Virus record (IMG/VR): IMGVR_UViG_3300035182_001315
Direction: 5' to 3' (one strand)
Source of the DNA: a virus
Taxonomy: Duplodnaviria > Caudoviricetes
Length of the DNA: 64,000 nt
Every line of letters begins with the position of its first letter. Position 1 is the stretch's first letter. The notes beneath the pieces were generated by a model. The model saw only the letters and a program-made list of their open reading frames with translations. It was not told the origin of the DNA and ran no database searches. Shown one piece after another: positions 7,041 through 51,838 of this stretch. Made by a program: the position numbers and the translations under genes.

Positions 7041-8450
7041 ATGGTAATTAGGACCTTTTTCGATAAAAACAATACTCTTGTAGCAAATGACTATGTGAAC
7101 ACAGCGAGAAATCCCGTTGCGGAACTCTTCTATGGCGGTGCCGTAGGTGAGAACAGATTTACCCGTTTCATCTTCCATTTTGACGAATCAAGACTCCGTT
7201 CAATGTACACTGGCGGAACCTTCACAGACCTTACCAAACTGAAACATACTCTTAAATTAACAAATACCGCTATCTTTGACGAAGAACTTCTTAACAAGGA
7301 TTTCGGCGGAAAGGACAGAAGCTCATCTTTCGACCTTATCGTTTTCAAGGTTAACCAATCTTGGGACGAAGGGGTAGGCTATGACTTCTCTGATTGTCAG
7401 GCATTCTTCGGAAACTGCTCAATCTCTTTCACACCTTCAAGCTGGTATTACCCAACAACTGGTATCTACTGGAGCGGCGGTTCTGGCGTATACTCAGGTT
7501 CACCATCTGGCATCACTGTTGCTACTCAACACTTTGACCTTGGTAATGAAAATATGGAAGTAGATATTACAAGCTACGTTAACGGCCTATTGACAGGCGG
7601 AACAAACTATGGCTTGGGTATAGCATACTCACCAGCTTTCGAGGCGATGTCTACCCGCCAGCTTCAATATGTAGGATTCTTTACACGTCACACACAGACC
7701 TTCTATGAACCGTACATTGAAACAAGCTACAGCAACAATATCACAGATGACAGAAACAACTTTTACTTGGATAAGCCAAACAAGCTTTACCTGTACGTAA
7801 ATGCTGCCGGTAACCCAACCAATTTGGATTCACTTCCGGGAGTTGTTGTATATGATAATGAAGACAACGTATTCTCAGCTTATACTTCATCAGCGGTAAC
7901 CCACGTCACCAAGGGTGTTTATTCAATCGATATCTTGGTTCCAACCGTGGATGGCCTGACTGACAAATACCTTTACTCAGATGTATGGACCGGCATTACC
8001 ATCAACGGTATCAGCAGACCTAATATCAGCCTTACCTTTGAGCTTAGAGATAGCTTGGAGTATTACGGCATTGGTGACGAGGATGCCCTTCCTAAGCCAC
8101 TGGCTGTATCTGTAGCAGGACTTAATAGCAATGAGAAAATCAAGCGTGGCGATATCCGTAAGGTTATTGTTTCAGCAAGAATTCCATATACCGTAGAACA
8201 GTCTCAGACCGTTATCGGCATCAAATATCGTTTGTATGTAACTGAAGGAAAGAATGAGGTTACTGTTATCGACTTCACGCCGGTACAGATTGCTTCAAAC
8301 TATAACTACTTTTTGCTGGATACGCTTAGCCTTATTCCGGGAACATATTATTTGGATGTATTAGTTGAATCAAACCAAGAAGTGACAACGCTTAGAAACG
8401 TTATCAATTTCCAAATCATCAGTGAATCTAACCTTAGAATCAGCCAATAA
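7041..8450 (+). CDS. probable virion structural protein (beta-rich)
   Basis: 469-aa ORF behind an ATATTTAT motif; G/T/S-rich beta-strand patterns. Confidence 0.55.
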   Translation: MVIRTFFDKNNTLVANDYVNTARNPVAELFYGGAVGENRFTRFIFHFDESRLRSMYTGGTFTDLTKLKHTLKLTNTAIFDEELLNKDFGGKDRSSSFDLIVFKVNQSWDEGVGYDFSDCQAFFGNCSISFTPSSWYYPTTGIYWSGGSGVYSGSPSGITVATQHFDLGNENMEVDITSYVNGLLTGGTNYGLGIAYSPAFEAMSTRQLQYVGFFTRHTQTFYEPYIETSYSNNITDDRNNFYLDKPNKLYLYVNAAGNPTNLDSLPGVVVYDNEDNVFSAYTSSAVTHVTKGVYSIDILVPTVDGLTDKYLYSDVWTGITINGISRPNISLTFELRDSLEYYGIGDEDALPKPLAVSVAGLNSNEKIKRGDIRKVIVSARIPYTVEQSQTVIGIKYRLYVTEGKNEVTVIDFTPVQIASNYNYFLLDTLSLIPGTYYLDVLVESNQEVTTLRNVINFQIISESNLRISQ

Positions 8451-8827
8451 TGAAAGACCTTATCAGACATAGAGTACGCAACTTTATCATGGAGAATACC
8501 ATGATTGATGACCAGAGCATGAATCCCGGCACACAATCTCTGTGCAATACCATGAGCGTAAAAACCTATGATGAAGTTATTGGTCGTGTTACAGCAGCGA
8601 TAGGTACCCAGCAAGAAAATCCACAGATGTGGGCGAAGATTCAAAAGCCTCTTTCAATGCTTCAGCAATCCAACAATCAAATTGGTCAGGAAAGAGATAC
8701 AACCATGGATGGCCAGCCAACAAACAATGGCGCAGGCATCACAGGTGACTCAATGGTGGATGAAGCCAACACTTGGTGGGCTGCAATACAATCAATAATC
8801 TGCGAACAAGGTCCAGAATTTCAATAA
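8450..8827 (+). CDS. hypothetical protein with MKDLI...E leader (candidate internal head protein)
   Basis: N-terminus MKDLIRHRVRNFIME resembles other leaders in the window. Confidence 0.55.
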   Translation: MKDLIRHRVRNFIMENTMIDDQSMNPGTQSLCNTMSVKTYDEVIGRVTAAIGTQQENPQMWAKIQKPLSMLQQSNNQIGQERDTTMDGQPTNNGAGITGDSMVDEANTWWAAIQSIICEQGPEFQ

Positions 8828-8831
8828 CAAA

Positions 8832-8859
8832 AAACCCACATTTCTGTGGGTTTCTTTTT
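8832..8859. terminator. bidirectional intrinsic terminator
   Basis: AAACCCACA-TTTC-TGTGGGTTT flanked by A and T runs, between convergent genes. Confidence 0.8.
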
Positions 8860-9703
8860 AACAATCTTTTCTACAACCTTCATTTATCAGATGTCTCATA
8901 TCAGATGGACGACCTGTAGCTCTGTTGTATTTGTTGGCCAACTGTGTATTGCCACCGGCAACCTCTTGCTTAGCCCAAGTTCTTGTTTTATAATTTGCCC
9001 CATAGAATGGATGCCATATGTGTAGTATAGAATTCTTTGTTGTTTTGTGCTTTGCGTAAAGTGTATCCAAAGCTCTCAATAAAGCGATGTCTTCACCACC
9101 CCAACCCTTATCAAATCTCTCATCGAAACAACCCAATATTTCAATAGCTTCTCTGGGCATCACGGTACACATTGCACCATAGCGATGACCATACTTGCTT
9201 ACATCACCAGCATTTTCAATAAAACAATCAGCCGGATGTTCTGGGAATCTGTAAGGATGCTTAGGGTCTGATTCAAGGATACGTTCGGATGCTTCTTTTG
9301 TTAAACGATAAAGATGACGGTAAGGTACATACCACAAGCGGTGGCCACGGTCAATCTCTTCAAGGATTCTATCAGCACAATGCTCGATAACCTTTCCAGA
9401 AATGTATGCATCAGAATCCATAACCACGATAACCTTTCCTGTTGATTCCTTGAAGGCATTGTTAAGTGCTTCGGATTTGCAGAAAATTTCGCTATTGGAT
9501 TTTCCAATTATAATTTCTGCATCAGGTAGTTCGTGTTTCCAATACTTCAATAACCATTTGAACGACCTTTTTCTTATTTTGTCCTCGGATGAAAATGGTA
9601 TCAGAATACTTATCTTAGGTTGTTCATTTTCGCATGGAGCCTTAAAAAAAAGATTGTAAATTAGCTTGCCTATTAACCTTGAAATTCTTCTGAAAATGTT
9701 CAT
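8858..9703 (-). CDS. glycosyltransferase family 2 with GT7-like C-terminus
   Basis: ISILIPF, KSEALNNA, VVMDSD (DxD), FDERFDKGWGGED. Confidence 0.8.
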   Translation of the reverse strand: MNIFRRISRLIGKLIYNLFFKAPCENEQPKISILIPFSSEDKIRKRSFKWLLKYWKHELPDAEIIIGKSNSEIFCKSEALNNAFKESTGKVIVVMDSDAYISGKVIEHCADRILEEIDRGHRLWYVPYRHLYRLTKEASERILESDPKHPYRFPEHPADCFIENAGDVSKYGHRYGAMCTVMPREAIEILGCFDERFDKGWGGEDIALLRALDTLYAKHKTTKNSILHIWHPFYGANYKTRTWAKQEVAGGNTQLANKYNRATGRPSDMRHLINEGCRKDC

Positions 9704-10419
9704 GAAAATAATCTTTTTATTTCTTCGAAAACATCGAACAATTCGTGTTGTCGTTCTGTTATTATGTGTCTGTTTGCTTGTTGTGTTACACCTATCTCCA
9801 GCTCCATTCCGATGCTCTGACTGTAGTCATGCCATTTGAATAGTCCACCTTCTTGGTGCGGATGACTCAAGACCCTTTCTGAGATTTCAATTCTTCTTGG
9901 TATACCAAATGCATCTGCAATTATAATACCATGTAACGAAGAACTAACAATCTTTTTACACTGACCTATCTCAGCAATTACCTTTAGTGGGTCATCACTC
10001 ACATCGATAATCTTAGGGTTGTACTTTAAAAATCTTGGGTCTTTGGTTAATGCCTTATCAGTCCAATGTGCAACAATTCCTAAGTCATATTTCTTGTCTT
10101 CAAGCGGTACCAATTCATCAGCCAATAATCCGAAATCTCCAAATGGAATGCCGGTTAAATGTGGCGCTGTAAGTGGCCCTCTCAGAGCTAAAATAGTAGC
10201 GTTAGGGAAATCTACTACCGTCTTTTCATGTAATTTTCCTGTACCTGCAATCACCCCGCTGAAGTCCTTTGGAAGATGCTCAAGTATAGAGCCCACCATA
10301 ACCAATTCAGCCTTGTCTGGTGTGACAAGGGTCGTTGATAATCCAGTAAATCTTTTGATTAGTAAGTCGGTTAGTAAATCACCGAAATTTTTCTTTCCTG
10401 TCCAGTAATATACATTCAT
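9700..10419 (-). CDS. polysaccharide pyruvyltransferase (ExoV-like)
   Basis: NFGDLL, VGSIL, GTG, ALRGPLT, GDFGLL, IVSSSLHGIIIADAFGIP motifs. Confidence 0.85.
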   Translation of the reverse strand: MNVYYWTGKKNFGDLLTDLLIKRFTGLSTTLVTPDKAELVMVGSILEHLPKDFSGVIAGTGKLHEKTVVDFPNATILALRGPLTAPHLTGIPFGDFGLLADELVPLEDKKYDLGIVAHWTDKALTKDPRFLKYNPKIIDVSDDPLKVIAEIGQCKKIVSSSLHGIIIADAFGIPRRIEISERVLSHPHQEGGLFKWHDYSQSIGMELEIGVTQQANRHIITERQHELFDVFEEIKRLFS

Positions 10420-10519
10420 AACTATAAATATGGGAGGTTCCAGAGAAATTTCTAATACAAAATTAATTATTTGTTGTTAGCCTCTTGACTTATCAACATG
10501 TTGTATTATATTTATAATT

Positions 10520-11681: not shown

Positions 11682-11685
11682 TCTT

Positions 11686-12146: not shown

Positions 12147-12590
12147 TTAATGAACCTTAACAAGGTCATAAATGGCATTGAGGATTTCAAGGAGAGATGT
12201 ACTCCAGCGTACAAGGAAATCTGGACCGTCATGTGAACCCTTTCTGTGATTAGAAATTCTTATGATTTCCTTGAGCCCACGAACATAAATTGAAGAAGTT
12301 GTCTTCGATTTCTTATATGGAATGTTCTTCTGATTCAGCCAATCCTCAATCTTTACAACCTTAGCGGCAGCAATCTCTTGTTCAAACCCACCCAAGGACA
12401 CTGTACGGTCCTGTTCAGGAATCTCAACGGCCACCTGTGTCTTCTGAGGCTGGTCTGCATTAGCCGGTACAAGTCTCATTTGTGGGAAAAACTTCTTTCC
12501 TTCCTTCTCCAAAGCGGCCAAGGATGCAGGGTCAGACTTGGAATTCTCATCCAATGATTCACGTACTAATTGTTTGATTAAGTCCTTCAT
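12147..12590 (-). CDS. hypothetical protein with MKDLIKQLVRES leader, paralog of 11686..12108
   Basis: ATG at 12590 follows an ATATTTAT motif; shared motifs with downstream gene. Confidence 0.7.
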   Translation of the reverse strand: MKDLIKQLVRESLDENSKSDPASLAALEKEGKKFFPQMRLVPANADQPQKTQVAVEIPEQDRTVSLGGFEQEIAAAKVVKIEDWLNQKNIPYKKSKTTSSIYVRGLKEIIRISNHRKGSHDGPDFLVRWSTSLLEILNAIYDLVKVH

Positions 12591-12681
12591 AACCATAAAT
12601 ATCCAGTTAAAAAATAAAGTTGGGTTTAAACTTGGCGCTATCCAGCTTTTTTTGGTACCTTTGCGCCAAATTGTAAGAGTT

Positions 12682-14943: not shown

Positions 14944-16809
14944 TTATCTCAATTCATTTACGTTGAAGGTAGGAACACCATCTACACGAATATGCCCGTA
15001 GAAGCGGTTATTTACGACCTTTTTTGCGTAACGAGTCATGATACCCTTCACCGGAGCGAAGTTGAATGGATTGTACATTGTTGGGGTTAACTGCAACGGC
15101 ACGTAAGGTGCGTAGATATAACCTGTGTCCAAAAGTGACTTACCCTTGTGACCGATGATAACACTATACGCTGGAGCGTAAGGGTCACGGTAAACTTGGT
15201 AACGACCACCTAAAGTACCGATACGTTCGATACCCATGTTGTACTGGTCCTGTTCTGGGTTAGCGTCAGATACGTGGAAATATTCCAAGTCATCAAATAC
15301 AGCAGAGATTTCAGAAGAAACTACGATGAAGTTTGCACCACCACGTAAAGTTGACTTGTGAATCTGAGCAGAGATTTGGTTTACTCTTGTGATAAGAGTT
15401 TGGTTCCAGTCTTTCTGAGTGTATGGACTTGCAGCAGATGAAGCTTTTCTCCAACCGTTGTAATCCCAACGCAACTGCCATGCAGCAGCCTTTCTGATGT
15501 CTCTCAAGATTTCTCTGTCGATTTCAGCCGCAACCTGCTCAGACAACATAGCTGTAAGTTCAGCTTCTGCGTCGATGTTATGGAATGCGCTAACGTCTTG
15601 AGCAAGCTCTGGAGACCATGTAGCACGTAATTTTCTTTCTTCAACAGCAACAACAACTTCGTCCAATTTGAATGATACTTCACCCATTTCAGTTTCAAGT
15701 TCCAATGAAGCGTATTGGCCCCAAGCAACAGAGAAAGAAGCAGCTGATAATGATACAGAACCAGCGTAAGTTGTAGCAGATGCACCGATGTAACCATCGA
15801 ATGTAGAAGTACCCGGAGATACTAATGAACCAGCCGCAGTTGAACCAACTGGGTGAGTCAAGTCAAGACCCAAGTACAAAGTACCTGTAACGTCAGTCAA
15901 GTTCTGGTAATCTACGATACCACGACCGTACTGCTGAGTCATAAGACGGAAAGGAACTTCCTTGTTGATAGCGATAATTGTGTTACCGTCCTTATCAAGG
16001 ATTGCGCTGTTAGCGATAACGTGGATAGAAGCCAAGAAAGATTCTGTATCCATTGAGTTACCGTCAGCACCAGCAAGGATTTGCTTAGTTGCGTATGGAG
16101 TGAAACCAGTTACGCCAATGATAACCTGACGAACAGTACCATCGTTACCAGCAGCTACAGGAACACCGTTTGCGATGCTGTAATTACCAGTTGAATCCAA
16201 AGCCAATACATTGTAACCACCAGTGATGATTGTCAAAGTACCCTTAGAGTTATCGAACATACCATCGTTGTAGAATATATCGTACAAGTTCTTAGCTTGG
16301 TACTGAGTGATTGCACAACCTGTAGAGTTGATACATGATGGAAGACCTACAGCAACAACGTTACCATTGTTCATACCACCCAATGCAGTGTGTGCAGAGA
16401 AAGTAGTACCGTAGATGTCAGAAGCTGCTGTCTGAGTGTAGTCAGAACCGGCAAGACCGTTTCCGTCAACACGAGAAGATGTCTGAGGTACGAAGTAGAA
16501 CAACTTACCGATTGGCATGTTCATAGCTTGTACAGACACGATGTCGTTAGCCAAAAGCTTAGAGAATACTCTTCTCACGATAGGGAATACAACTGTTTCG
16601 AAAGAACCAGAAGACTGTGAGGTTGTAGATTCGCTCAACAAAGTTGAAGCTTGGTTTTCATACAACTGAGCAATGTTTTCCTTAACGTGTCCCTTAAGAC
16701 CTTCAAGGAAGCCAAGTGATTCCCACTTAGCTTGGGTTTCCTTACGGATAGCCTTCATGTGGTTTAAACCGATGTTACCCACTTGGCCAGATGTTAATAA
16801 ATGTGACAT
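14944..16809 (-). CDS. major capsid protein, T4 gp23-like
   Basis: FPIVRRVF, VSVQAMNMP.G..FY, RKLRATWSPELAQD..AFH.IDAEAEL, GYIYAPYVPL, GIMTRY. Confidence 0.95.
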   Translation of the reverse strand: MSHLLTSGQVGNIGLNHMKAIRKETQAKWESLGFLEGLKGHVKENIAQLYENQASTLLSESTTSQSSGSFETVVFPIVRRVFSKLLANDIVSVQAMNMPIGKLFYFVPQTSSRVDGNGLAGSDYTQTAASDIYGTTFSAHTALGGMNNGNVVAVGLPSCINSTGCAITQYQAKNLYDIFYNDGMFDNSKGTLTIITGGYNVLALDSTGNYSIANGVPVAAGNDGTVRQVIIGVTGFTPYATKQILAGADGNSMDTESFLASIHVIANSAILDKDGNTIIAINKEVPFRLMTQQYGRGIVDYQNLTDVTGTLYLGLDLTHPVGSTAAGSLVSPGTSTFDGYIGASATTYAGSVSLSAASFSVAWGQYASLELETEMGEVSFKLDEVVVAVEERKLRATWSPELAQDVSAFHNIDAEAELTAMLSEQVAAEIDREILRDIRKAAAWQLRWDYNGWRKASSAASPYTQKDWNQTLITRVNQISAQIHKSTLRGGANFIVVSSEISAVFDDLEYFHVSDANPEQDQYNMGIERIGTLGGRYQVYRDPYAPAYSVIIGHKGKSLLDTGYIYAPYVPLQLTPTMYNPFNFAPVKGIMTRYAKKVVNNRFYGHIRVDGVPTFNVNELR

Positions 16810-16830: not shown

Positions 16831-18147
16831 TTAGTACTTATCTTTATTTTCAACTCTCTTAATCAAATCTTTGATTCTTTGAGTAGAAGGGTCAACGTAT
16901 GCAGTTGCTTCGTTTAATTGTTTTGAAGAACCTGTAGCGACCTCTTTTATTATTTTGTTTTCTACCGCTTCGTTTACTGGTTTCTTAGACTTAAGCTCGT
17001 TAACGATAGTTTTGTATAATCTTTTTGATTGTTCAAGAGTTGTTACCTCTTCGTCGAATCTCTGGATAAATTTCTTCTTCTCATCCTTGGTAGTTGCATG
17101 TTCCATGAACAATCTTGTTATGTAACTAAGATTGCTATTGAATACTACAGTTTCCACAAGCATGTTTCTGAATTTCTTTAGGGCTTCTTTGTATTCTTCG
17201 TTCTGGCCCTTAAGCTTTGTAGCTTCAGTCAACAATTTGTTGTACTTAACTTCAATGCCTTCAGTAACTATTTTCTTTGCAGTTGTAGTTGACTCTTTAA
17301 CGCTTGCTGCGCCAGCTCCCTTTGGTTGGCCAATCTTAGCCTTCCCCGGTAATCTGTGTGCTTGTGCAAGGCCAACAGGAATTGCTTCCTTTACCAAGTC
17401 TTCCTCTTCACCTTCAACAGGTGCTTCACCTTCTGCAATTGGTTCTTCTTCATCATCAGTAGCAGGAGCTTCTTCGCCACCTTCAGCTGGAGTTTCGGCA
17501 TCATCATCATCATCATCATCATCCATAGCGATTTCGTAACTCATCTCATCATCGTCACCACCTTCTGCGCCCATGTCACCACCAAGTTCTCCACCGATTG
17601 CTTCGTCACCTACTGGTGCTTCTGCTGCTGGTGTGCCACCTGCCTTAACAATGTACTCTCCCGGTTCGCTAATAGTCATGTGAATTTCGTCACCCACAAC
17701 TTCGATTTCGTCTTCGCCACTCAATTTCTTGTAGATAGCTATAACGTCATCATCTGAGGCATCAGTCATATCTAATTCATCCCCATCCAACGCATCTGCG
17801 TCCGTTCCAAATTCTTGACCCATTTCTGGTTCAACTTCATCTGAGGTTTGAATAGCTGAATCGTCAGTTTCGTCCCCGCCAATGCCTTCGATTCCTGCGT
17901 CTGGAGTTTCTGCGCCCACTTCTTCTCCTGCTGGAGCTTCAGTTTCTTCACCATCCATTTCGCCATCTTCATCACCATCGACAGTTTCTTCTTCAAAATC
18001 ATTTTCAGTTAATGATTCTTTCACCAGACCAGCAATTTCTTCTTTCGCAACGGAACGAAGTATTTCTTTGGTATTGGCATTCAAAGCATTCTTGATTTTT
18101 GTAACATCAAGTAACGCTTCTTCAATAATTGATTTCTTTTCTGCCAT
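16831..18147 (-). CDS. prohead core/scaffold protein (gp22-like)
   Basis: Very acidic low-complexity middle, coiled-coil C-terminus, between protease and capsid genes. Confidence 0.75.
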   Translation of the reverse strand: MAEKKSIIEEALLDVTKIKNALNANTKEILRSVAKEEIAGLVKESLTENDFEEETVDGDEDGEMDGEETEAPAGEEVGAETPDAGIEGIGGDETDDSAIQTSDEVEPEMGQEFGTDADALDGDELDMTDASDDDVIAIYKKLSGEDEIEVVGDEIHMTISEPGEYIVKAGGTPAAEAPVGDEAIGGELGGDMGAEGGDDDEMSYEIAMDDDDDDDDAETPAEGGEEAPATDDEEEPIAEGEAPVEGEEEDLVKEAIPVGLAQAHRLPGKAKIGQPKGAGAASVKESTTTAKKIVTEGIEVKYNKLLTEATKLKGQNEEYKEALKKFRNMLVETVVFNSNLSYITRLFMEHATTKDEKKKFIQRFDEEVTTLEQSKRLYKTIVNELKSKKPVNEAVENKIIKEVATGSSKQLNEATAYVDPSTQRIKDLIKRVENKDKY

Positions 18148-18276: not shown

Positions 18277-18972
18277 TTAACCCAATAAAAAGCTATCTAA
18301 CCCCTCGTTAAGTGTACTTTTCTTCCCCTGAACGCTCTCCACATAAGGTTTTGCCTCGGCTGCATGCTTAAACATCCATGACCCCGGCGTACTTGGAGCC
18401 GTTACAATATCCCAGCAAATCAATTCAAAATCCTCTTGTACGATGAAATCACCCTTCACTTCCTTCAACGAACCAACACCTCTTGAGGAAACCCCAATCA
18501 TAATGTTGTTCCTTAAAAGGTTTGCAACCTCGTCACCCTTGGTAGAAACAATGCCGTAATTGATGTAACCCTTAGACATAAGGATTTCCATTTGGCCCAT
18601 AAGCGTATGCCCTTCCCACCAAGTCTTGATGATATTGTGGGAAATACGGTCACCGGCAATTACTGATGATTCTGGGTGATCCAATTCACCAACAGCTCTT
18701 CTTTCGTGAATAGCTTGCTGATAAATTTCATTCTGTGTCTTGAGAATATGTTCTGGGTAGATTCTTCCATTACGGTTCTTCACGTTGTACTTCTGAAGAA
18801 CAACATATACAATTAGGGTATCTGTAGCATCACCCTTTCCAGCATCCAACTTTGCGAATTCTCTTATGAGGTTTGAATTCTTTGGGTCAGTCGGAGAGAT
18901 ATAACCGGCATCCTGCTCAATTAAGTAGCCAAACCCTGTTTTACCTGCCTTTAATATTTTGATGTCATCCAT
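18277..18972 (-). CDS. prohead core protease, T4 gp21-like
   Basis: NRNGRIYP, AVGELDHP, ISH, GVSSRGVGS, WDIV..PS. Confidence 0.92.
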   Translation of the reverse strand: MDDIKILKAGKTGFGYLIEQDAGYISPTDPKNSNLIREFAKLDAGKGDATDTLIVYVVLQKYNVKNRNGRIYPEHILKTQNEIYQQAIHERRAVGELDHPESSVIAGDRISHNIIKTWWEGHTLMGQMEILMSKGYINYGIVSTKGDEVANLLRNNIMIGVSSRGVGSLKEVKGDFIVQEDFELICWDIVTAPSTPGSWMFKHAAEAKPYVESVQGKKSTLNEGLDSFLLG

Positions 18973-20957: not shown

Positions 20958-23024
20958 TTAATCCTTCAACATATCGTCGATATCAGAAATCATTCGATTG
21001 ATTCCCTCGTTGATTTTCACGTTCTTATTGTAAATCTTCACGTTTTCTGTTGGTTTTTCCTCACCATTTACGCTGGTAATCAGCTTATCTATGAAGATTC
21101 CGTTATATCTGGCAGTTCTCTCGTTGAGCTTTTTCTTAAGAATTTTCTTCTGTTCATTAAGAATATTGGCCCTTCTTTTAATTTGCTCTGCCGTTGGGGT
21201 TACCGGTTCTGTTCCGCCAGCCGCTGGTTCTGGAGCTTCCGCACCACCTTCAGCCGGTTCAGCTCCACCCTCTGCGCCACCTGTCGCACCGCCTTCTGGG
21301 GTCTCAGCACCTTCAGTTCCTTCCTCATCCTGACCGAAGTCCAAGTCAGTTTCTGAGGTTCCACCACCACCAAAACCACCACCTAAGCCACCGCCTCCAC
21401 CGGCAGCATCAGCACCTTCTTCACCGCCTTCTGGGGTACCGCCCTTCATCGCAGCAGTCATATCACCGTAAAGTCTGTCCACGATATCAAACATACCAGT
21501 ATGCTTGATAACTGAAGCTGTATTGGCCAATTCAGCCGCCGCAGCCTTCTCCATTCTCTGTTCAAGTAAATCCTGCTTAATTTCATTGTCAGACCAACCA
21601 AGGATTTCTCTCTTGGCTCTGGTCATAGACATAGCACCGAAACCGTTACCGGCATCAGATACAGAATCCTTATAAAGAGTCATCTTCAATTGAGAATGCT
21701 CAACCTTCAACATTTCAGCCTGTGTTGATGGGTTATTAAGAGTAAGTGTAAAATTGTCCAAGTCATCCTCGAATCCCAAAAGGTACAAGTGAATGATAAC
21801 AATCTTGTTCAATTCCTGCAACATCGTTTGCTGGATACGGTTGATGGTTCTGGAGAAACGGATATCCTGCAAGGCAAGATTCTTACCGTCACCAGTTGTT
21901 TCATCAAAGCCCAAGAACGGCTTAGGAACTCTCAATGCTGTAAACAATTTCTTCTGCAAGTACTCGATATCCGCAATCTGGTCCAAGTTAGATGCACCCG
22001 GAAGTGTATCGATTGGATTTGGAGCGTCTTCTGTTCTTACTGGAATGAAATAATCTTGGTCATTTGAAAGCTGATTGTAACGAAGGTCCATCTGGCCGGT
22101 TGCTGGGTCAACAACTGGACTTCTTTTGAACCTGTTCGCAATTTCATTTACGTATGATTCTACATCCGCTTCATCGATGTTACCAACGAAGATTTTATAG
22201 ATTCTTCTTTCTGGGGCTCTTGTTACACGGTAAACCAACATCGCATCCTCAGAAAGCAACAGCTGCTTCCAGATTCTTCTTGCTTTCTCAAGTACTGATG
22301 TACCATAAGGAAGTCTTCTGTCATCGCCAAGCAATCTGAAGTGAGCCATCTGCAATGAATTGAATTCCATGTCACGACCTCTCCAATAGAACTTAACCTT
22401 ATCTGATTTTGATGTTGTCTGGGAAGGATTCTGTGAAAGTACATCGAACAAACCACCATCTCTTCTTTCCATTTCGTAGTTCGGCATCTGCTTAGCACCA
22501 ATAATACCATTCTGGTCATCGATGTTCAAGTAAACAAAGTTGTCACCATACTTACAGGTATTACGGGTCCACATCGGTAAAGAGGTATGAATGTCCAAAC
22601 GGTTGAAGATAAGGTCTTCAACAATTCCCTTTACACGCTTACTGTCTGAGTAAACGTTCACCATTCTACCGTTAGAGTTAAGGGTAGTTGATTCTTCCAT
22701 CATGATATCCAAAGCTGCGGCGATTTCTGGGTAGAACTCCATAGCCTCGAAGTCAGAATATGAACTGATTCTGGTTGTTTCGTAGTTAACGGACTGCTGG
22801 AAAAGACCATTTTCAACCTTCTTCCAAGTTTGTCCTAAATATTTATTTTGCTGAGCCTGAAGCTTAGCTGTCTCGAATGCTGCTTTGTCGGTAGTCTTGA
22901 TAAGCACATCGTTGCCGATGTTATATCTCTGGGTCTGCGGCTTGCTGGTTTCTTTGGTCTTGAAACCTTCTGGGCCTAATATCTGACCTAATTTTTGAAA
23001 TACCGTTAGTTTTTGTTTAGCCAT
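20958..23024 (-). CDS. portal protein, T4 gp20-like
   Basis: SYSDFEAMEFYPEIAAALDI, LLLSEDAMLVYRVTRAPERRIYKIFVGN, DYFIPVR, IDTLPGA.NL. Confidence 0.93.
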   Translation of the reverse strand: MAKQKLTVFQKLGQILGPEGFKTKETSKPQTQRYNIGNDVLIKTTDKAAFETAKLQAQQNKYLGQTWKKVENGLFQQSVNYETTRISSYSDFEAMEFYPEIAAALDIMMEESTTLNSNGRMVNVYSDSKRVKGIVEDLIFNRLDIHTSLPMWTRNTCKYGDNFVYLNIDDQNGIIGAKQMPNYEMERRDGGLFDVLSQNPSQTTSKSDKVKFYWRGRDMEFNSLQMAHFRLLGDDRRLPYGTSVLEKARRIWKQLLLSEDAMLVYRVTRAPERRIYKIFVGNIDEADVESYVNEIANRFKRSPVVDPATGQMDLRYNQLSNDQDYFIPVRTEDAPNPIDTLPGASNLDQIADIEYLQKKLFTALRVPKPFLGFDETTGDGKNLALQDIRFSRTINRIQQTMLQELNKIVIIHLYLLGFEDDLDNFTLTLNNPSTQAEMLKVEHSQLKMTLYKDSVSDAGNGFGAMSMTRAKREILGWSDNEIKQDLLEQRMEKAAAAELANTASVIKHTGMFDIVDRLYGDMTAAMKGGTPEGGEEGADAAGGGGGLGGGFGGGGTSETDLDFGQDEEGTEGAETPEGGATGGAEGGAEPAEGGAEAPEPAAGGTEPVTPTAEQIKRRANILNEQKKILKKKLNERTARYNGIFIDKLITSVNGEEKPTENVKIYNKNVKINEGINRMISDIDDMLKD

Positions 23025-36393: not shown

Positions 36394-38925
36394 ATGAACA
36401 TAGAAACAAGCCCAAAGGTCAAAGCAATTATGGCCAAAGCAAATAAAGAAGCAAAGTCGTTTGATGATATTAAAATCAGACCAGAGCATATTCTACTTTC
36501 TATACTTAATGACGATGATAATCTGTGTGTTACAATATTAAAAACACTTCAGGTAGATATCACCGACCTTCATGATAAGCTATCTGATAATCTGCGTAAA
36601 ACAGATTTAACCCCAAGAGTTTCAAGAGCTGGAAAAGAAAAGCTTCCGTTTTCGGATGAATCTCAGAAGGTAATGAAAAATTTGGATGCTGAATGCAAGA
36701 ACTTTAATGACAGAATGATTGACACAACCCATGTTATTCTTTCAATCCTTGCTAATAAAACACCTTCAACAACCTTACTTAGCGAAGTAGGTGTAACTTA
36801 CAAAACTTTTAAATCAGCTATGTTAGACATCAACGGAACAAACACAGACCCAAAGAGCGAACATTTCGAAGAAAATGAAGATTTTCCAGAAACCCCAGAA
36901 CCAGCAAAAAGAAACAAAAAAGTGAAAGAAGCATCAAAAACTCCAGTCCTTGACAACTTCTGTCGTGATATCAGCAAGGCAGTTGAACGTGGCGAAATTG
37001 ACCCAGTTGTTGGCCGTGCCAAAGAAATCAAAAGAATGGCCCAAATTCTTTCCAGAAGAAAGAAGAATAATCCAGTTCTTATCGGTGAGCCGGGAGTGGG
37101 CAAAACAGCTATCGTTGAAGGCTTGGCCCAGATGATTTATGATGGCAACGCCCCAAGACCTCTTATTGGTAAAAGAATCGTTGCTTTGGACCTTGCAGTA
37201 TTGGTTGCCGGTACCAAATACCGTGGCCAGTTTGAAGAAAGAATGAAAGCCGTATTACAGGAATGTAAGGCTAACCCAGATGTTGTTCTCTTCATTGATG
37301 AACTTCATACAATTATGGGTGCCGGTAACGCATCAGGTTCATTGGACGCATCAAACATCTTCAAGCCACCTTTGGCTCGTGGAGAACTTCAGGTTATCGG
37401 TGCAACAACACTTGATGAATTCAGAGAATCTATTGAAAAAGACGGTGCTCTTAACAGAAGATTCATTCAGGTATTGGTTGAAGAACCAACCGTGGAAGAA
37501 ACCATCATTGTCCTTAAGAACATAAAGTCCAAATACGAAGCTCACCACAAGGTGACATATACCGATGAGGCTATCGAAGAGTGCGCAAGACTTGCTCACA
37601 GATACATCACGGACAAATTTTTACCAGACAAGGCCATCGATGTTATGGATGAGGCCGGTGCTGCAACAAACATTGAGTTTGAAAAGCCGCAAATCATAAA
37701 GGACCTTCAAGCAAAGAGAGATATTATCCTTTCCAAGAAAAAGGATGTTGTCAACAAACAGAAGTACGAAGAAGCCGCTATGCTCAGAGATGAGGAAAGA
37801 AAGGTTGAAGAACAATTGAAGGCCGAGCTGAAGGAACTTAATGCAAAGCTCGACAAAAAAATTACTCCAGTTGGTGTTGAGAATATCGCTGAAATCGTGT
37901 CAATGATGACAGGTATTCCACTTACAAAGGTTTCAAGCCAAGAAAGCAAGAGACTGAAGAATCTGGATAAAGAACTTCAAGGCAAGGTTATCGGTCAGGA
38001 CGAAGCGATTACAAAGGTTGTTAAGGCAATCAGAAGAAATCGTGTTGGTATTACCGACAAGAACAAGCCAATGGGCTCATTTATCTTCCTTGGCCCTACA
38101 GGTGTGGGAAAAACAGAACTTGCAAAGCTTTTGGCAAAGCAAGTGTTCGGTGACGAAGAAGCAATGATTCGTATCGATATGAGTGAATACATGGAGAAGT
38201 TCTCCATAAGCAGACTTATCGGTGCGCCTCCGGGCTACGTGGGTTATGATGAAGGTGGCCAGCTTACCGAAAAGGTAAGAAGAAAGCCTTATTCCTTGGT
38301 TCTTTTGGATGAAATCGAAAAGGCTCATGAAGATGTTTATAACCTTCTGTTGCAAATTTTGGAAGACGGTCACTTAACTGACGGTCTGGGTAGAAAGGTA
38401 AACTTCAAGAATACCCTTATCATCATGACATCGAACATCGGTACCGCTGAATTGGCTGCAATTGGTAGCTCAGTTGGTTTCCAAACGCTCGTTAGTGGTG
38501 CTCAGGACCTTTCAAGAGAAAAGGCTGTTATCGACAAGGCATTGAAGAAGAAGTTCAGACCAGAATTCTTGAACCGTCTGGATGATGCAATTGCCTTCAA
38601 CCACTTGACTCAGGAAGACATGCACAAGATTATTTACATGGAATTGGATAAGGTTCATGCAAGGCTCAAGGAACAAGGTTACAAGTTGACCATTTCTGAA
38701 GATGCCGTTAAGCATTTGGCCGTGGAAGGATACAGCAACGAATTCGGCGCAAGGCCGCTGAAGCGTGTTCTTCAGAAGCAGATTGAAGACCCTGTGGCTG
38801 ATAATATCTTGGACGAAAGCCTTGTAAAGGGTGGAACGATTAAGATAGGATTCGACAAAACAGAGAAAGTCATAACGGTGAAAGTCACCGGCGTTTCGAA
38901 AGAAGCGAAAGAAGCGGTAGAATAA
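36394..38925 (+). CDS. clpC: ClpB/ClpC-family AAA+ chaperone (Hsp100)
   Basis: Clp N-domain, two AAA modules ([13 protein letters not shown]; [17 protein letters not shown]), UVR-like middle coil, FGARPLKR. Confidence 0.9.
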
Positions 38926-38956: not shown

Positions 38957-38970
38957 GATATTTATTGGAT

Positions 38971-39372
38971 ATGAAAGGGTTAATTAAACATTTACTAAGA
39001 GAAGGACTATTTGACGCTGATTCAGAAAAGCAAAAGGCTTTATTGGATAAGTTTGTTGAATTTGCATGCGATTTCTTAAAGATTCCTAAATCCAAGGTTA
39101 TCTTAAGGTTCGACCGTGATGGACTTACAACAACCGCTGCTTATGGCAACGGCGAAACTCAAGTCTATGCGAAGGACCGTGCTATTGTTGACATCATGCG
39201 CTCCATTGCCCATGAATTAACCCATAACAAACAGGATGTTGAAAAGAGACTTCAACAAGATAAACACGAAACTCAAAATGCTGCCGGTTCACCAATCGAA
39301 AATGAGGCGAACGCTACTGCCGGTGTGATAATGAGAAAGTTCGGTGAAATGTATCCAATAATTTATCAATAA
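38971..39372 (+). CDS. HExxH zincin-like protein with MKGLIKHLLRE leader
   Basis: IMRSIAHELTHNKQ followed by ENEANA; ATATTTAT 5 nt upstream. Confidence 0.65.
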   Translation: MKGLIKHLLREGLFDADSEKQKALLDKFVEFACDFLKIPKSKVILRFDRDGLTTTAAYGNGETQVYAKDRAIVDIMRSIAHELTHNKQDVEKRLQQDKHETQNAAGSPIENEANATAGVIMRKFGEMYPIIYQ

Positions 39373-40940: not shown

Positions 40941-41144
40941 TTATTTCTTGCCTTCAGTAAGCTTGTTTAGCTTCTCTTCCAAGTTGTTCAACTTTGTTTC
41001 CAAAATTGCGTTCTTGTCACCCTTAGCAGCTTGTTCAGCTAACCATTCTTTCTTCTTAACGCTAACCGCTTCTGTAACAATTCCATCGATTAAATCTACC
41101 AAAGCAGATTCTGTAATTCTAACGGTTGTTTTTATTTTTGACAT
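40941..41144 (-). CDS. small protein with VRITES leader (candidate internal head protein)
   Basis: MSKIKTTVRITESALVDLIDGIVTEA; ATATTTAT upstream; track ORF 40941..41423 over-extended. Confidence 0.6.
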   Translation of the reverse strand: MSKIKTTVRITESALVDLIDGIVTEAVSVKKKEWLAEQAAKGDKNAILETKLNNLEEKLNKLTEGKK

Positions 41145-41223
41145 AATAATGTGTTTTAGGGATTCTTTATCTCTTAATAAATATGTTTCGTTTCCAAAAA
41201 AGATAAAAAAACCTAAAAAATTA

Positions 41224-43713: not shown

Positions 43714-44034
43714 TTAAAAATTCTTTATCTTATGATAAAGTCTTTCGAGTTCAGGGGATACGCTTTTAATAGGTTGGATTACCTCTATGCAGACACGGTT
43801 TGGGTCCGTATTCTCAGTGAGTTTATATTGAAGTTCTTTTACTCTAAGATGGTCTTTAATCGAATGTTTTAATTCCAGTATAACCTGATTGTACGTTGCC
43901 CAAGCTTTCTTGTCTCTCTGATTACCGTTCGCAAGATTGGTCGTTACCTTATTCTCGTACTGTTCTTCCAAGAATGTTTCAAAACTACCATACTGTTCTC
44001 TTAGCACACTTTTTATCTTGCTGCGGATATCCAT
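43714..44034 (-). CDS. hypothetical protein with IKSVLRE leader
   Basis: MDIRSKIKSVLREQY; shares RVKELQYKLTE/E..N.N..L similarity with the adjacent 43293 ORF (EIKYRVTDEENANEVL). Confidence 0.6.
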   Translation of the reverse strand: MDIRSKIKSVLREQYGSFETFLEEQYENKVTTNLANGNQRDKKAWATYNQVILELKHSIKDHLRVKELQYKLTENTDPNRVCIEVIQPIKSVSPELERLYHKIKNF

Positions 44035-44039: not shown

Positions 44040-44378
44040 TTAATTTAACGCCACGTTCTTCGAGAGTCTGTTGTCCTTTATATTACCGAACATCCAATCC
44101 TTTATGACCTGTTGGGTAAACGCATCTCCAAGCTTATACTTTTTCTTAAAATACTCATACAGGTCCTTCGGTGTAATCGTGGATTCGTCAGCCTTTATCA
44201 TAACCATAGGCTCTTCATGATACTCACCACCCTCACGCATGATGCCAAGCATCGGCTCGTAGTTTGTATCCAAATCCTTAACAAGCCTCTCAACCAACGA
44301 CTCATGAGCATTAACCTCATTAAGACGCTTCTGAAGCTCCTTAAGCTGACTTTCCTTTATAATTAACTTAGTTCCCAT
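44040..44378 (-). CDS. hypothetical protein with KLIIKESQL leader
   Basis: MGTKLIIKESQLKELQKRLNE; ATATTTAT 5 nt upstream. Confidence 0.6.
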   Translation of the reverse strand: MGTKLIIKESQLKELQKRLNEVNAHESLVERLVKDLDTNYEPMLGIMREGGEYHEEPMVMIKADESTITPKDLYEYFKKKYKLGDAFTQQVIKDWMFGNIKDNRLSKNVALN

Positions 44379-44432
44379 ATACCATAAATATCACTTTAAA
44401 ACAAAAAAGGACCGCTATGCGGCCCTAATTTT

Positions 44433-47708: not shown

Positions 47709-48617
47709 TTAAAAATTTTTTTGGCCCTGATTAACATTGAATGTGAAGATTCCTTCCTTGTTCCACATATCCAACACCTGCAACCTGTCATCATAAACAC
47801 AGATTGGGTTATATGTTCCCTGAACATAATGATGCAATATCTCACGCTTCACAACCGTATCCTTCCTGCCGTCACCAGCCGGTCTCATAAACATCACATC
47901 CGGCTTGAACCCATGAAGCTCACACCACTCCAACGTTACCGCACGACAAACCTCATCCCTGCCGGTAACAAAAATGATTATTCTTCCAAGGCTTCTATGA
48001 AAATCAATATGCTCAACAACAATCCTGTTGATGTCGTCACGGTAAACTTCCATCCAGTCAAACGGCCCACGATTGCCCATATGAGCCAACGTTCCGTCTA
48101 TGTCAAATAGAACAGCCTCAGGCAACTCAGAATCCCAGTCAGGCTGAACAAGCGGAGCCTTCTGCATCTTCACCGGCTGGAAATCAAACGTACCCGTAAG
48201 ATACTTGTAATCCTCAACCATCTTCTTGATGACACCAGCACCCACCTTAGCATCACGTCCATTGTCACGCTCAATTGCCTTGTCAAGGCTGATATCAAAT
48301 ACACGATAATCAATGTCAGCTTGGAACCGGAAGTTCTCAATGATATTATCAATGTACCGCTGCTTCAGATTCGTATTATCAACAATCACATTCAGCTTCT
48401 TCCCCAGACACTCACCAATGACGTTGAATATCATCTTGGTTATCATATCCTCAATCTTGTTCTCACAAAGCTGGGAATTCTTAAGCATCATGCGGAAGTC
48501 ATCACGATTCACACGAACGTAATCAGCATGGTTGCGCACAAACTCCTTGGCCCAAGTAGACTTGCCTGACCCCGGAATGCCAATAAGTATCAATATTTTT
48601 AAGTTGCTCTTTTTCAT
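47709..48617 (-). CDS. pseT: polynucleotide kinase/3'-phosphatase (T4 PNK-like)
   Basis: GIPGSGKSTWA, VNRDD.R, DNTNL kinase; HAD phosphatase LFDIDGT, VYDDR; start MKKSNL at 48617. Confidence 0.92.
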   Translation of the reverse strand: MKKSNLKILILIGIPGSGKSTWAKEFVRNHADYVRVNRDDFRMMLKNSQLCENKIEDMITKMIFNVIGECLGKKLNVIVDNTNLKQRYIDNIIENFRFQADIDYRVFDISLDKAIERDNGRDAKVGAGVIKKMVEDYKYLTGTFDFQPVKMQKAPLVQPDWDSELPEAVLFDIDGTLAHMGNRGPFDWMEVYRDDINRIVVEHIDFHRSLGRIIIFVTGRDEVCRAVTLEWCELHGFKPDVMFMRPAGDGRKDTVVKREILHHYVQGTYNPICVYDDRLQVLDMWNKEGIFTFNVNQGQKNF

Positions 48618-48794: not shown

Positions 48795-48992
48795 TTAGTT
48801 TAAATAAAGTTTGAACATTGTGTGCAATAACCTGTCAGCTTCAGGAAACTTGTTCCTCGCCGCCAGCCCCTTCGAATACTCATTCAGGTCTGGGAAGTAA
48901 AGATACGGTAACCATTGATAGTTTTCACTCTTTGTCATAATTAGGATAAAGCTTTTCAGACTCCATGAACGCCTCAAGATAACTTGAACCAA
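48795..48992 (-). CDS. hypothetical protein
   Basis: Short ORF overlapping upstream gene; start uncertain. Confidence 0.3.
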   Translation of the reverse strand: MVQVILRRSWSLKSFILIMTKSENYQWLPYLYFPDLNEYSKGLAARNKFPEADRLLHTMFKLYLN

Positions 48993-49260
48993 TTATCTTG
49001 TACAACGCATCAGGATGATACATCGGAATGCAAACACCATCGTACATGTGATATTCCTCACACAACAAATGATGCTCTTCGCAAACCGTAATTCCATTGG
49101 CCAACACATAACCGCTGTTGGGCATCTCATGTCTATCTTTAATGTGATGAACTTGAAGATTCTCCTTTTTGTCACAAAATACGCACTGATACTTATCTCT
49201 TAAAAGACATGCTTCATTAAAATCTTTCCTCCAAAGTTTATGGAATCGTTTCATACTCAT
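48925..49260 (-). CDS. HNH-like protein
   Basis: RDKYQCVFC....LQVHHI......NGITVC..HH. Confidence 0.65.
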   Translation of the reverse strand: MSMKRFHKLWRKDFNEACLLRDKYQCVFCDKKENLQVHHIKDRHEMPNSGYVLANGITVCEEHHLLCEEYHMYDGVCIPMYHPDALYKIIGSSYLEAFMESEKLYPNYDKE

Positions 49261-49664
49261 AATTTATTTTTATTATATTCTACATGGGGGCAAATCCCAC
49301 CATTAATCGCCCTCCCCAAATTACAATTAAAACATAACACTTGTAAATCGGGTCTTTTATCTTCATTCTTTAATTTTAAATAATATTGATAAGAACTACC
49401 CTTCCTCGAATTATATAAATCCTGTCGTTCGATATTACCATTGTTATTAACATGGTCAATAGTTAAAAAATTATGTTCATCTTCTCCACAACAAGCACAA
49501 CAATTACCGTATTTATCAATTACTATTTTTTTTTTTTATTTTTTGGCGATAATTTTTTTGTTGTGTTTTATTATCGTGATTTTTAACATATTTTTCTTGT
49601 ATTGATTTTTTTTAATTAAACAATCTGAGCAACCAACAGAATTTTTATTTGCTTTCTTATTAGC
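49257..49664 (-). pseudogene. degraded HNH homing endonuclease
   Basis: VIDKYGNCCACCGE...FLTIDHVNNNG, then after a frameshift LQVLCFNCN.G...CPH; an in-frame TAA at 49536. Confidence 0.75.
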
Positions 49665-49979
49665 ATTAAATTCAGTCAACCCAGCATCAACAATCATCCC
49701 AACATACAAGTTGGCATCAACCGCCTTCTGGAATATCTCATCCAACTCAGCCTCAGAATCTACACTCAAACAAATCTTGGTGAATGTCCCATTTAACTAA
49801 CTATCAATTGCATCACCCTTAAGCATTCGCAAATTTAATTCATTGTGTTTATCATCACCACCACCATCCATCAAATTCAAGATAACCTTCATCGAAGCAT
49901 GCGCCCCTTGAGCAATCATCTTGCCCTTCCTCATGTTCAAAGCCTTACGCATCACAATAACCTGTTTGCTTATTTTCAT
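49665..49979 (-). pseudogene. pth2: peptidyl-tRNA hydrolase 2 (PTH2 family), inactivated
   Basis: KQVIVMRK.LNMRKGK..AQGAHAS; TAG at the expected Trp (DS*LNGTFTKIC); truncated after DAGLTEFN. Confidence 0.8.
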
Positions 49980-50632
49980 GGCTTTAATTTATTTGGTGTA
50001 ATAGCAGAATGCATCCAGTGCTGGTCAGTAGTAACATGCTTTGCCCTCACAAACTTACCAACATTCAAATCATACTCGTCATATCCAAACTCCCCAATAT
50101 TTCTTGTTACATATCCCTCATTCTTCGTTGTGTCAATCGAATCAGCCAGCTTCCTCAACTCAGCTTCATTATATGGCCCAACCTGTAACAACGGAACCGT
50201 CTGCAACCCCAACATCTCACAAATATCCAACGTATCCACCCACGAAAGACAACGATTCTTGTCGTTCCAAACACTGAACACCATGAAGTATGTAGGAAGC
50301 TCTTCGTATAAAAGACTGTGCTTGGCATAAAGATTTTCACCACATATGCGCCAGCCCTCAGGTATATCATGCCTTATCTGGCCCCATAATCCCTTAACCC
50401 AGTTACGGGAATCGTGATATTTGGAATCTATCGAACGTGCATGCATCCTGTCAGGATAAAGACTGGTATTTTCCCCATCCATCTTTAGGGTTGTTATGGT
50501 CATCATCGGACTGCCGGTACCCAGATAATTTTCAAATGAGGTCATATCATGATGAAACTTGTCATCACTGGTTGAACCCAATGACCACTCAAAATGATAC
50601 GTCCTCGGAAACTTAAAATACATCTGTTCCAT
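49976..50632 (-). CDS. RNA ligase family protein
   Basis: KMDGEN (motif I), HARS, ICGENL.AKHS, F.VFSVW, EGYV.R, KFVR..H. Confidence 0.85.
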   Translation of the reverse strand: MEQMYFKFPRTYHFEWSLGSTSDDKFHHDMTSFENYLGTGSPMMTITTLKMDGENTSLYPDRMHARSIDSKYHDSRNWVKGLWGQIRHDIPEGWRICGENLYAKHSLLYEELPTYFMVFSVWNDKNRCLSWVDTLDICEMLGLQTVPLLQVGPYNEAELRKLADSIDTTKNEGYVTRNIGEFGYDEYDLNVGKFVRAKHVTTDQHWMHSAITPNKLKP

Positions 50633-50928
50633 TATTCTGCCGGTTTGTATGTTAAAATATTTACCTTATCAGCCTCAGCACCAGAAAACAGCTCATAAAC
50701 TGAATTCTCCGTCCTGAACCTTATAAACCCTTCACGCTCTTCAAGAATCTCCAGAATCACAGTGGTCAACCAATAATCCAAAGGCGGCCTCCCAATAAAC
50801 AAGCTCCCACCAACCGCAACCTCCCTCACAAGTTCCTTCTTAAAGGTATTATCCTCATTCCATAAAAGGGTTGAAACCCTTTCAGATTCGAATTGAAAAC
50901 CCCAGCCAGCCTTGAATAGTTTGTACAT
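50632..50928 (-). CDS. hypothetical protein
   Basis: 98 aa, ends FRTENSVYEL. Confidence 0.55.
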   Translation of the reverse strand: MYKLFKAGWGFQFESERVSTLLWNEDNTFKKELVREVAVGGSLFIGRPPLDYWLTTVILEILEEREGFIRFRTENSVYELFSGAEADKVNILTYKPAE

Positions 50929-51004
50929 AATCTCCCATTTTCAGCGAAGATACCAGTTTTATTCCTAAGTACCAAATATTTATTTAAACAAATCCAACAT
51001 TCTT

Positions 51005-51838
51005 ATGAAATTTTTTGACAGGCCCTACATTTTCGAAAACCTTAACCCGCCAACCATCGTTGACGAAGTTAAAATCATGCATGACACCACCCTGAAAAAT
51101 ATGGAGTCTGAACTCAAAATCCCTAAAGACGTATTCCAATCATTCCAAATCAAAGATAACCTGAACCCAGAAATCTGGCATGATGGTAAACTTAATCCTG
51201 AAGTACGCATAAAGCTACTCGACATCGCAACCAACTTCGTCAACGACCTTAAGCTCCCTCAAATAAAAGTGAAAGACGTTCTATTCGTAGGCTCTCTGGC
51301 CAACTACAACTGGTCAAAGTTCTCCGATATCGACCTGCATATCGTCGTTGACTTCGAAGACTATAAAGAAGACCCTGACTTCATAAAGTCATTCTTTGAT
51401 GCTCAAAAGAACCTCTTCAATATGAACCATGACATAGAAATCCATGGCCACCCAGTTGAAACCTACTTCCAAGACAGAAAAGAAAAACTCGCAGCATCAG
51501 CCGTATACTCAGTAAAAAATGATAAATGGATTCTTAAGCCACAAAAAGAATCATTCAGATTGGACAAAAATGTAATCAGAAGAAAAGTGGAAAAGTTCTT
51601 CGATAAACTCAAAGACCTTAAGGCTGCTTACGACAACGGCCAGTATAAACTCGTTTTCGATGGCGTAACATCAATCATGAAATCCCTTAAGAAAATGAGA
51701 CAGTCCGGCTTGGAAAAAGGTGGGGAATTCTCCACAGAAAATATCATCTATAAAACCCTCAGAAGAACTGACGCTATGGAATTCCTTGACTCACTTAAAA
51801 TGAAATCATACGATAACCTCATGGCCGTTACCGAATAA
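51005..51838 (+). CDS. Pol-beta-superfamily nucleotidyltransferase-like protein
   Basis: GSLANYNWSKFSDIDLHIVVD (GS..DxD) and a third acidic residue in VETYFQD; ATATTTAT upstream. Confidence 0.7.
   Translation: MKFFDRPYIFENLNPPTIVDEVKIMHDTTLKNMESELKIPKDVFQSFQIKDNLNPEIWHDGKLNPEVRIKLLDIATNFVNDLKLPQIKVKDVLFVGSLANYNWSKFSDIDLHIVVDFEDYKEDPDFIKSFFDAQKNLFNMNHDIEIHGHPVETYFQDRKEKLAASAVYSVKNDKWILKPQKESFRLDKNVIRRKVEKFFDKLKDLKAAYDNGQYKLVFDGVTSIMKSLKKMRQSGLEKGGEFSTENIIYKTLRRTDAMEFLDSLKMKSYDNLMAVTE

Follow-up and report, generated by a model that had tools for sequence, protein, structure and literature searches.

Two classes of putative capsid-targeting propeptides on late proteins of an uncultured T4-related jumbo phage

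Seven genes of IMGVR_UViG_3300035182_001315, a 64,000-nucleotide stretch of viral DNA (the whole of which is called the window here), encode unrelated proteins that begin with short leaders ending in the motif (I/L/V)xE. The source is an uncultured T4-related jumbo phage with promoters of the Bacteroidota type. The question raised by the leaders, also called tags below, is whether they direct their proteins into the phage head and are removed there. Sequence comparison indicates that the tags are probably capsid-targeting propeptides that are removed by the head protease. The reading of open reading frames (ORFs) confirms the initial annotation in that all seven N-termini are present as quoted and each gene lies behind the motif ATATTTAT or in an operon behind it. 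The leaders belong to two shared classes, class 1 and class 2, and one propeptide specific to a single protein family. The genes, named by their start positions, are arranged as follows, with predicted cut sites and tag profile scores.

38971..39372, plus strand: class 1 leader protein of 133 residues with a small HExxH zincin-like domain; MKGLIKHLLRE, cut before G; profile 27 bits.
12147..12590, minus strand: class 1 leader protein of 147 residues; MKDLIKQLVRE, cut before SLDE; profile 22 bits; ATATTTAT 4 nucleotides upstream.
8450..8827, plus strand: diverged class 1 leader protein of 125 residues, from a conserved family of small modules; MKDLIRHRVRNFIME, cut before N; profile 8.2 bits.
43714..44034, minus strand: weak class 1-like leader protein of 106 residues; MDIRSKIKSVLRE, cut before Q; profile 4.1 bits; second gene in the late unit of 44378.
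44040..44378, minus strand: class 2 two-site leader protein of 112 residues; MGTKLIIKE, first cut, SQLKELQKRLNE, second cut before V; profile 11.2 bits.
40941..41144, minus strand: class 2 two-site leader protein of 67 residues; MSKIKTTVRITE, first cut, SALVDLIDGIVTE, second cut before A; profile 13.6 bits.
51005..51838, plus strand: Pol-beta-type nucleotidyltransferase (NTase) of 277 residues with a family-specific propeptide; MKFFDRPYIFE, cut before N, then VDE, cut before V; VTE at the C-terminal end.

The initial annotation treated the seven leaders as one family. This single-family reading was rejected on the basis of profiles and alignments of homologues, which separate the two shared classes from the family-specific propeptide of 51005 and leave 44034 as a weak case. 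The tag profiles were built from relatives alone, with the window sequences left out and, for class 2, also the orthologues of the window genes. The capsid-selected relatives comprise 80 loci (L001-L080) chosen by their capsid gene only. In these loci, the class 1 consensus MKxLIKKLLRE, continued by G, S or N and then L, heads many different ORFs, frequently located shortly after the capsid gene. The exact back-translated class 1 pattern occurs in 96 IMG/VR stretches and in none when the tag codons are searched in reverse order. The 116 distinct class 1 proteins fall into 45 clusters, between which BLAST detects no similarity beyond the tag. The class 2 tag has 21-25 residues, the consensus MKKIIRLTESDLxRIVKRVIxE and two cut sites located 12-13 residues apart. 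It was found in at least 120 IMG/VR stretches (none for the reversed-order control), and the 120 proteins that carry it form 100 clusters, with the second (L/I/V)xE beginning at residue 20 in 95 of them. The corresponding two-site layout in the window is IKE9 and LNE21 in 44378, and ITE12 and VTE25 in 41144. The two tag motifs are 32 and 60 times commoner at N-termini than within proteins, as counted in the capsid-selected loci only.

The profiles made from relatives pick out five of the seven window genes. The class 1 profile ranks 38971, 12590, 8450 and 44034 in this order with the scores listed above, and the next candidates score below 3 bits. The class 2 profile places 41144 and 44378 at the top of 685 window N-termini, the next of which reaches 4.4 bits. 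The looser criterion of any (I/L/V)xE near the N-terminus was dropped, as about a quarter of all ORFs satisfy it. In orthologues of 44378 from G001, a complete relative, and from locus L101, ITE...LSE is retained, and both sites of 41144 are retained in the orthologues from the same two sources. Orthologues of 8450 begin with MKxFIKKLLRE followed by QMIDGQ. The Atlas record of this gene, a public gene call, starts at Met14 (position 8489) and loses the tag. The orthologues show that the longer form of 8450 is the conserved one, so automatic annotation can hide such tags. The ATG codons of 12590 and 41144 are located inside longer frames started by TTG. The mature parts of 8450, 12590, 44034, 44378 and 41144 have no match in Pfam, PHROGs or Atlas, and a tblastn search with the 8450 protein found no match in cultured phages.

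Synonymous codons vary freely at every tag position, whereas the residues are fixed, which indicates that selection acts on the peptide. Within class 1, Leu9 is encoded by CTT in 50 cases, TTA in 39 and CTA in 15, and Arg10 by AGA in 74, AGG in 30, CGA in 8 and CGT in 4. The class 1 tag forms a basic amphipathic helix with a hydrophobic moment of 0.64-0.77 and a net charge of +1 to +3. A second cut site follows 3-5 residues after the first in 42% of class 1 tags, compared with 9% per window of that size in mature parts. The cargo of class 1 tags in relatives includes ART-PolyVal, GNAT, poly(A) polymerase-like, GP88 and kinase domains. The proteins behind class 2 tags are mostly small, and nearly all of them are without a Pfam domain. 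Unbiased clustering of the N-termini of G001 yields only a class 2 trio, so that tagged genes are few in this subclade.

The head genes of the window, identified by PHROG and Pfam matches, form a T4-like module on the minus strand of this phage DNA:

23324-25138, minus strand: large terminase (PHROG/Pfam).
20958-23024, minus strand: portal protein, start of the T4-like head module (phrog_213, 2.7e-61).
Between the portal and protease genes, minus strand: four small core-like genes.
18277-18972, minus strand: T4 gp21-type prohead protease (Peptidase_S77; PF03420, 7.7e-23).
16831-18147, minus strand: acidic scaffold-like protein with many (L/I/V)xE sites, placed between the protease and capsid genes.
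14944-16809, minus strand: gp23-like major capsid protein with the propeptide junction LSE (residues 58-60) before STT (phrog_138, 4e-69).

The order of portal, small genes, protease, scaffold and capsid is that of T4 genes 20, 67, 68, 21, 22 and 23 in the T4 record. The S77 protease aligns to the structure of T4 gp21 (PDB: 5JBL) and keeps the catalytic His (in GELDHP) and Ser (in GVSSRG), both of which are present in wild-type T4 gp21 and replaced by Ala in the crystallised form. An S77 protease is encoded by every tested leader-bearing contig that is at least 86% complete. The scaffold-like protein is very acidic, is conserved in relatives, contains 16 (L/I/V)xE sites, and occupies the position of T4 gp22 between protease and capsid. 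Its LVKE and LTE sites (residues 41-48) and the LSE of the capsid protein, both pointed out in the initial annotation, are present. The capsid junction is located just ahead of the conserved PIVRRVF core, at the place where T4 gp23 has LTE followed by AEIGG. The capsid proteins of 79 relatives have L, I or M at position 58, N, T, S, Y or K at position 59 and an invariant Glu60 (79/79), and the next residue is mostly A, S or T. The capsid junction and the tags have a single invariant element, the (L/I)-x-E skeleton.

The same site grammar recurs where protein modules meet. In 41 homologues of the HExxH protein 38971, Glu11 is invariant, position 9 is conserved as L or I, and residue 10 is R, N, K, Q, T or V. 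The module of the 8450 family (QMIDGQNMN...), which is conserved beside head and tail genes, starts right after LRE in stand-alone genes and after IME or INE in the window and in locus L099. In two-module relatives, in which another domain is placed ahead of it, it starts after ITE, VNE, LNE or INE. The NTase module in long ORFs of relatives is preceded by IKE, ISE or IDE joints. In homologues of the NTase with about 420 residues, a further module is attached directly behind SV(S/T)E, the very point at which the window protein stops with VTE and a stop codon.

The tagged genes are linked to the putative late motif ATATTTAT, which occurs in 28 copies in the window against 4.9 expected and is also found upstream of the terminase, protease, portal-side and other structural genes. 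The copies at or near the tagged genes are:

38958-38965, plus strand: ATATTTAT before 38971.
7022-7029, plus strand: further copy of ATATTTAT.
12595-12602, minus strand: further copy of ATATTTAT.
41177-41184, minus strand: further copy of ATATTTAT.
44384-44391, minus strand: further copy of ATATTTAT.
50976-50983, plus strand: further copy of ATATTTAT.

The motif lies 4-5 nucleotides before the ATG of 12590, 38971 and 44378, 32 nucleotides before that of 41144, and 21 nucleotides before that of 51005. Genes 8450 and 44034 are the second genes of units opened by ATATTTAT. The copy located 5 nucleotides upstream of 44378 is downstream of a terminator hairpin. Tagged ORFs are over-represented downstream of the late motif (odds ratio 5.4, p = 3e-8), in line with the co-occurrence of leaders and motif noted at the outset. 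Among the window sites and loci L001-L080, the distance from motif to ATG is bimodal, with values of 4-5 and about 14-16 nucleotides. Judging from the spacing, the short class, which includes the terminase, 12590, 38971 and 44378 genes, would yield leaderless or nearly leaderless late mRNAs.

The two tagged proteins with recognisable enzymatic folds were assigned as in the initial annotation. The 38971 protein is a minimal zincin-like protein with about 120 residues after the tag. The HExxH motif and a downstream Glu ligand are invariant in the 41 homologues (His81, Glu82, His85, Glu110 and Glu112), which supports the zincin-like call. The predicted structure has a predicted local distance difference test score (pLDDT) of 89, and the tag stands apart in it as a helix with low confidence. 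The top Foldseek matches are all zincins (SPRTN, Wss1, PprI/IrrE and the minigluzincins abylysin and selecase), and they are weak, with E-values of 0.02-0.3 and template modelling (TM) scores of 0.37-0.48. There is no Pfam match at an E-value of 0.01. The protein has 259 homologues, some of which carry the source label ImmA/M78, and the neighbouring Atlas clusters are nearly all viral. A search for related loci with the HExxH protein alone found none.

The 51005 protein matches PF01909 at 23.6 bits, above the cut-off of 21, and the residues of its GS...DxD signature (Gly96, Ser97, Asp108 and Asp110) are invariant in 25 homologues, in agreement with the earlier call of a Pol-beta NTase. Foldseek gives only weak matches to Pol-beta NTases, with CD-NTase, ANT and minimal-NTase folds, and a wider structure search (VIA-wide) returns mostly helical bundles, so that no subfamily was assigned. 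Residues 1-18 are disordered in the model. The homologues share an N-terminus of their own, MKFIxxxxI(L/I)E followed by an invariant Glu21, which matches neither tag class. The genes for a polynucleotide kinase-phosphatase and an RNA ligase (47709-48617 and 49976-50632, both on the minus strand) adjoin the tagged NTase gene, and the group looks like an RNA-repair style neighbourhood.

Modules that are separate tagged genes in the window occur in relatives as tagged multi-module chains. The tagged proteins of the window are single-domain, and several effector domains in one polypeptide are found only in relatives, such as L045 and L068. In L045, a 529-residue ORF (960-2546, plus strand) joins a class 2 tag, a zincin, a zinc ribbon and an NTase, and Atlas likewise lists zincin-NTase fusions. 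The L045 fusion indicates that 38971 and 51005 are split forms of one tagged chain. In L068, a chain of 1248 residues (140-3883, plus strand) ends with the NTase and has an internal joint (AELLKE, HILNE) that resembles the class 1 tag. In P0229, the NTase is followed by a GNAT domain.

Taken as propeptides, the tags would work as follows. A small set of late gene products would start with a short basic helical tag, which would hold each protein on the scaffolding core while the prohead assembles. The gp21-type (S77) serine protease would then cut after the Glu of the (L/I/V)-x-E site. The mature protein would be freed inside the head, stay with the DNA, and leave with it into the host. The class 1 tag would serve 38971, 12590, 8450 and perhaps 44034; the class 2 tag would serve 44378 and 41144; and 51005 would rely on a private propeptide that has a site of this type. 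The proposal of the initial annotation that T4-like leaders are cut after (I/L)xE by a gp21-like protease has strong comparative support from the S77 protease, the head module, the capsid junction, the portability of the tags, and their link to the late motif. Binding to the core, the cleavage itself, presence in virions and ejection into the host are inferred, as is a possible anti-defence or takeover role of the tagged proteins.

The main rival explanation accepts the tag and the cut site and differs in the fate of the proteins. They would be components of the assembly core that undergo processing, as T4 gp67, gp68 and gp22 do, and that are degraded or expelled at maturation, and there would be no injected cargo. 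The small size of most class 2 proteins and their lack of Pfam domains fit such parts, as do the conservation of the 8450 family beside head and tail genes and the fact that T4 core proteins too have (L/I)xE sites near their N-termini. However, the mature parts, with their 45 and 100 clusters, are extremely diverse, unlike conserved assembly parts, the class 1 relatives bear enzymes of a host-modifying type (ART-PolyVal, GNAT, poly(A) polymerase-like and kinase), and the zincin and NTase of the window have no obvious assembly role. We regard the core-part explanation as unlikely, though less so for the small class 2 proteins than for class 1. A different signal is conceivable, either an amphipathic helix for association with the membrane or nucleoid, or an inhibitory propeptide that silences toxic enzymes, removed by the head protease or another one and not involved in capsid targeting. 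The class 1 tag is indeed a basic amphipathic helix, it is set apart as a low-confidence helix in the HExxH model, and several of the cargo types would be harmful if active early. Nevertheless, one 11-residue tag would be unlikely to act as an inhibitor for all of the 45 or more unrelated folds that carry it. The tag also has no hydrophobic core such as secretion signals possess, it is found together with S77 proteases, and its terminal site is the one that closes the capsid propeptide. Such a signal explains less than capsid targeting does, and we consider it improbable.

The shared N-termini might also reflect the nucleic acid and give the peptide no role, either as the translation start region of near-leaderless late mRNAs or as a promoter-plus-leader cassette that provides a homology arm for gene shuffling. 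The late motif is often merely 4-5 nucleotides before the ATG, the leader DNA is A-rich, and leader genes cluster and swap between relatives. Yet the codons vary under fixed residues, the terminase (25138) and the gene at 10419 have the same 4-nucleotide spacing and no peptide, and about half of the leader genes have no late motif directly upstream. The same site grammar is also present inside fused proteins and in the capsid protein. An RNA-level explanation as the main cause was rejected because of the codon variation and the peptide-free late genes with identical spacing, and the whole nucleic-acid alternative appears very improbable. Recombination at the promoter-leader cassette may well operate in addition to the role of the peptide.

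Several observations weigh against the capsid-targeting interpretation. Packaging, cleavage and ejection in this clade are predicted from comparisons in which the best cultured capsid match is 37% identical, and the putative late-promoter role of ATATTTAT is read solely from its position before structural genes. An (I/L/V)xE near the N-terminus is common by chance, and this loose rule applies to 25 of the 88 non-late ORFs and 11 of the 17 late ORFs of the window. G001, the closest complete relative, has about five genes of this kind, so that the set is no larger than that of T4. The N-terminus of 51005 is specific to its family, and its first site is not retained in all homologues. The 44034 leader is weak, the orthologue in L101 is without the peptide as called, and that in G001, MELRDKIQRVLRD (151910-152236, plus strand), ends in LRD in place of LRE. 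When Asp takes the position of this Glu in T4, targeting still occurs and processing is blocked (PMC9026906).

The phage is distant from cultured ones. A near-identity DNA search with the head region against cultured phages found no match, and the best cultured capsid proteins are 37-42% identical. IMG/VR contains hundreds of relatives with capsid identities of 53-80%, some of which lie on complete contigs (345 and 363 kb). One of these, G001, shares synteny with the first 38 kb of the window at a nucleotide identity of 66-73%. The window's own HExxH and NTase proteins are present on six contigs, which reach up to 228.6 kb.

The closest known parallel is the capsid targeting sequence (CTS) of the T4 internal proteins, which was reportedly treated by Mullaney and Black in 1996. 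The internal proteins IPI-III of T4 carry the CTS and Alt has propeptides, both of which are removed by the prohead protease gp21 (PMC9026906, PMC3012670). Alt is a packaged ADP-ribosyltransferase and a precedent for enzyme cargo (PMC5512222). The system described here resembles that of T4 in the short N-terminal peptide on unrelated late proteins that ends in (L/I)xE, in the gp21-type S77 protease and T4-like head gene order, in the small number of tagged genes per genome (about 5-8), and in the enzyme cargo. It differs in the sequences of the tags, which are the basic MKxLIKKLLRE and a 22-residue two-site peptide, and in their conservation across a large uncultured clade, where they head dozens to hundreds of families. 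The cargo differs as well, being a minimal zincin-like protein and a Pol-beta NTase known here from sequence alone. Two shell proteins of T4 offer a further comparison. The N-terminus of gp24, MAKINELLRE followed by S, is similar to class 1 (xLLRE, residues 8-11, followed by S, G or N), and the capsid junction LSE followed by S corresponds to LTE followed by A in gp23. The T4 peptides, however, are located on shell proteins and not on portable cargo. The resemblance to the vertex protein gp24 hints that the portable tag may derive from a shell-protein propeptide. No gp24-like vertex protein was identified in the window.

The phiKZ-like giant phages process their ejection proteins, as described for 201phi2-1, phiKZ gp175 and SPN3US gp245 (PMC9026906, PMC10052503). 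In these phages, many proteins of the head interior are cleaved behind a Glu by a diverged gp21-like protease, and a large protein cargo is delivered to the host. Their propeptides have redundant cut sites (PMC9026906), which the second sites of the class 1 tags resemble. They nevertheless belong to a separate lineage with another site logo, no shared portable N-terminal tag has been described for them, and the capsid, portal and protease of the window are closer to those of T4. The polyvalent proteins of phages and conjugative elements (Iyer et al. 2017, PMC5512222) also contain zincin-like metallopeptidase, Pol-beta NTase, ART and GNAT domains that are predicted to be packaged and delivered, and L045 similarly fuses the zincin and NTase of the window in one protein. 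In the window, in contrast, the domains are encoded by individual genes, and each bears its own tag. Head-protease sites are present at the joints, which makes processing by the S77 protease more likely than processing by the zincin.

A few searches of open-access text found no description of these tags. The principle of the T4 CTS and gp21 processing is already known, and the tags extend it. New here are the two tag classes side by side, the private propeptide on a very large NTase family, and the zincin-NTase pair in split and fused forms, which point to a functional pair. Tentatively, one head protease, a portable tag and (L/I/V)xE joints might let this clade of Bacteroidota jumbo phages load, cut apart and reshuffle an enzyme arsenal, of which the zincin and NTase could be a conserved co-injected pair that acts on the host as soon as infection starts, with nucleotide-based defence signalling or RNA ends as conceivable targets. 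If the tags work as in T4, they provide a sequence-only readout of the injected protein set for thousands of uncultured jumbo phages. These proteins make up the first wave of host takeover and counter-defence, and most of the families among them are without known function. The tags could also serve as handles to load foreign proteins into capsids of Bacteroidota phages.

Other features of the window lie apart from the tagged genes. Between positions 55000 and 63720, mostly on the minus strand, about 15 copies of ATAGTCTTATCTTTG precede small genes; this motif has 26 matches at up to three mismatches against 3.5 expected, and the array looks like a set of strong early promoters of the Bacteroidota type (TAnnTTTG). 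A family 2 glycosyltransferase gene and a polysaccharide pyruvyl transferase gene (8858-10419, minus strand), with the late motif upstream, are located between the tail-side and head-side structural genes. A full-length ClpB/Hsp104-type double AAA+ chaperone of 843 residues (36394-38925, plus strand) has an early-type promoter upstream, and its gene is directly upstream of the terminator and putative late promoter of the HExxH gene 38971.

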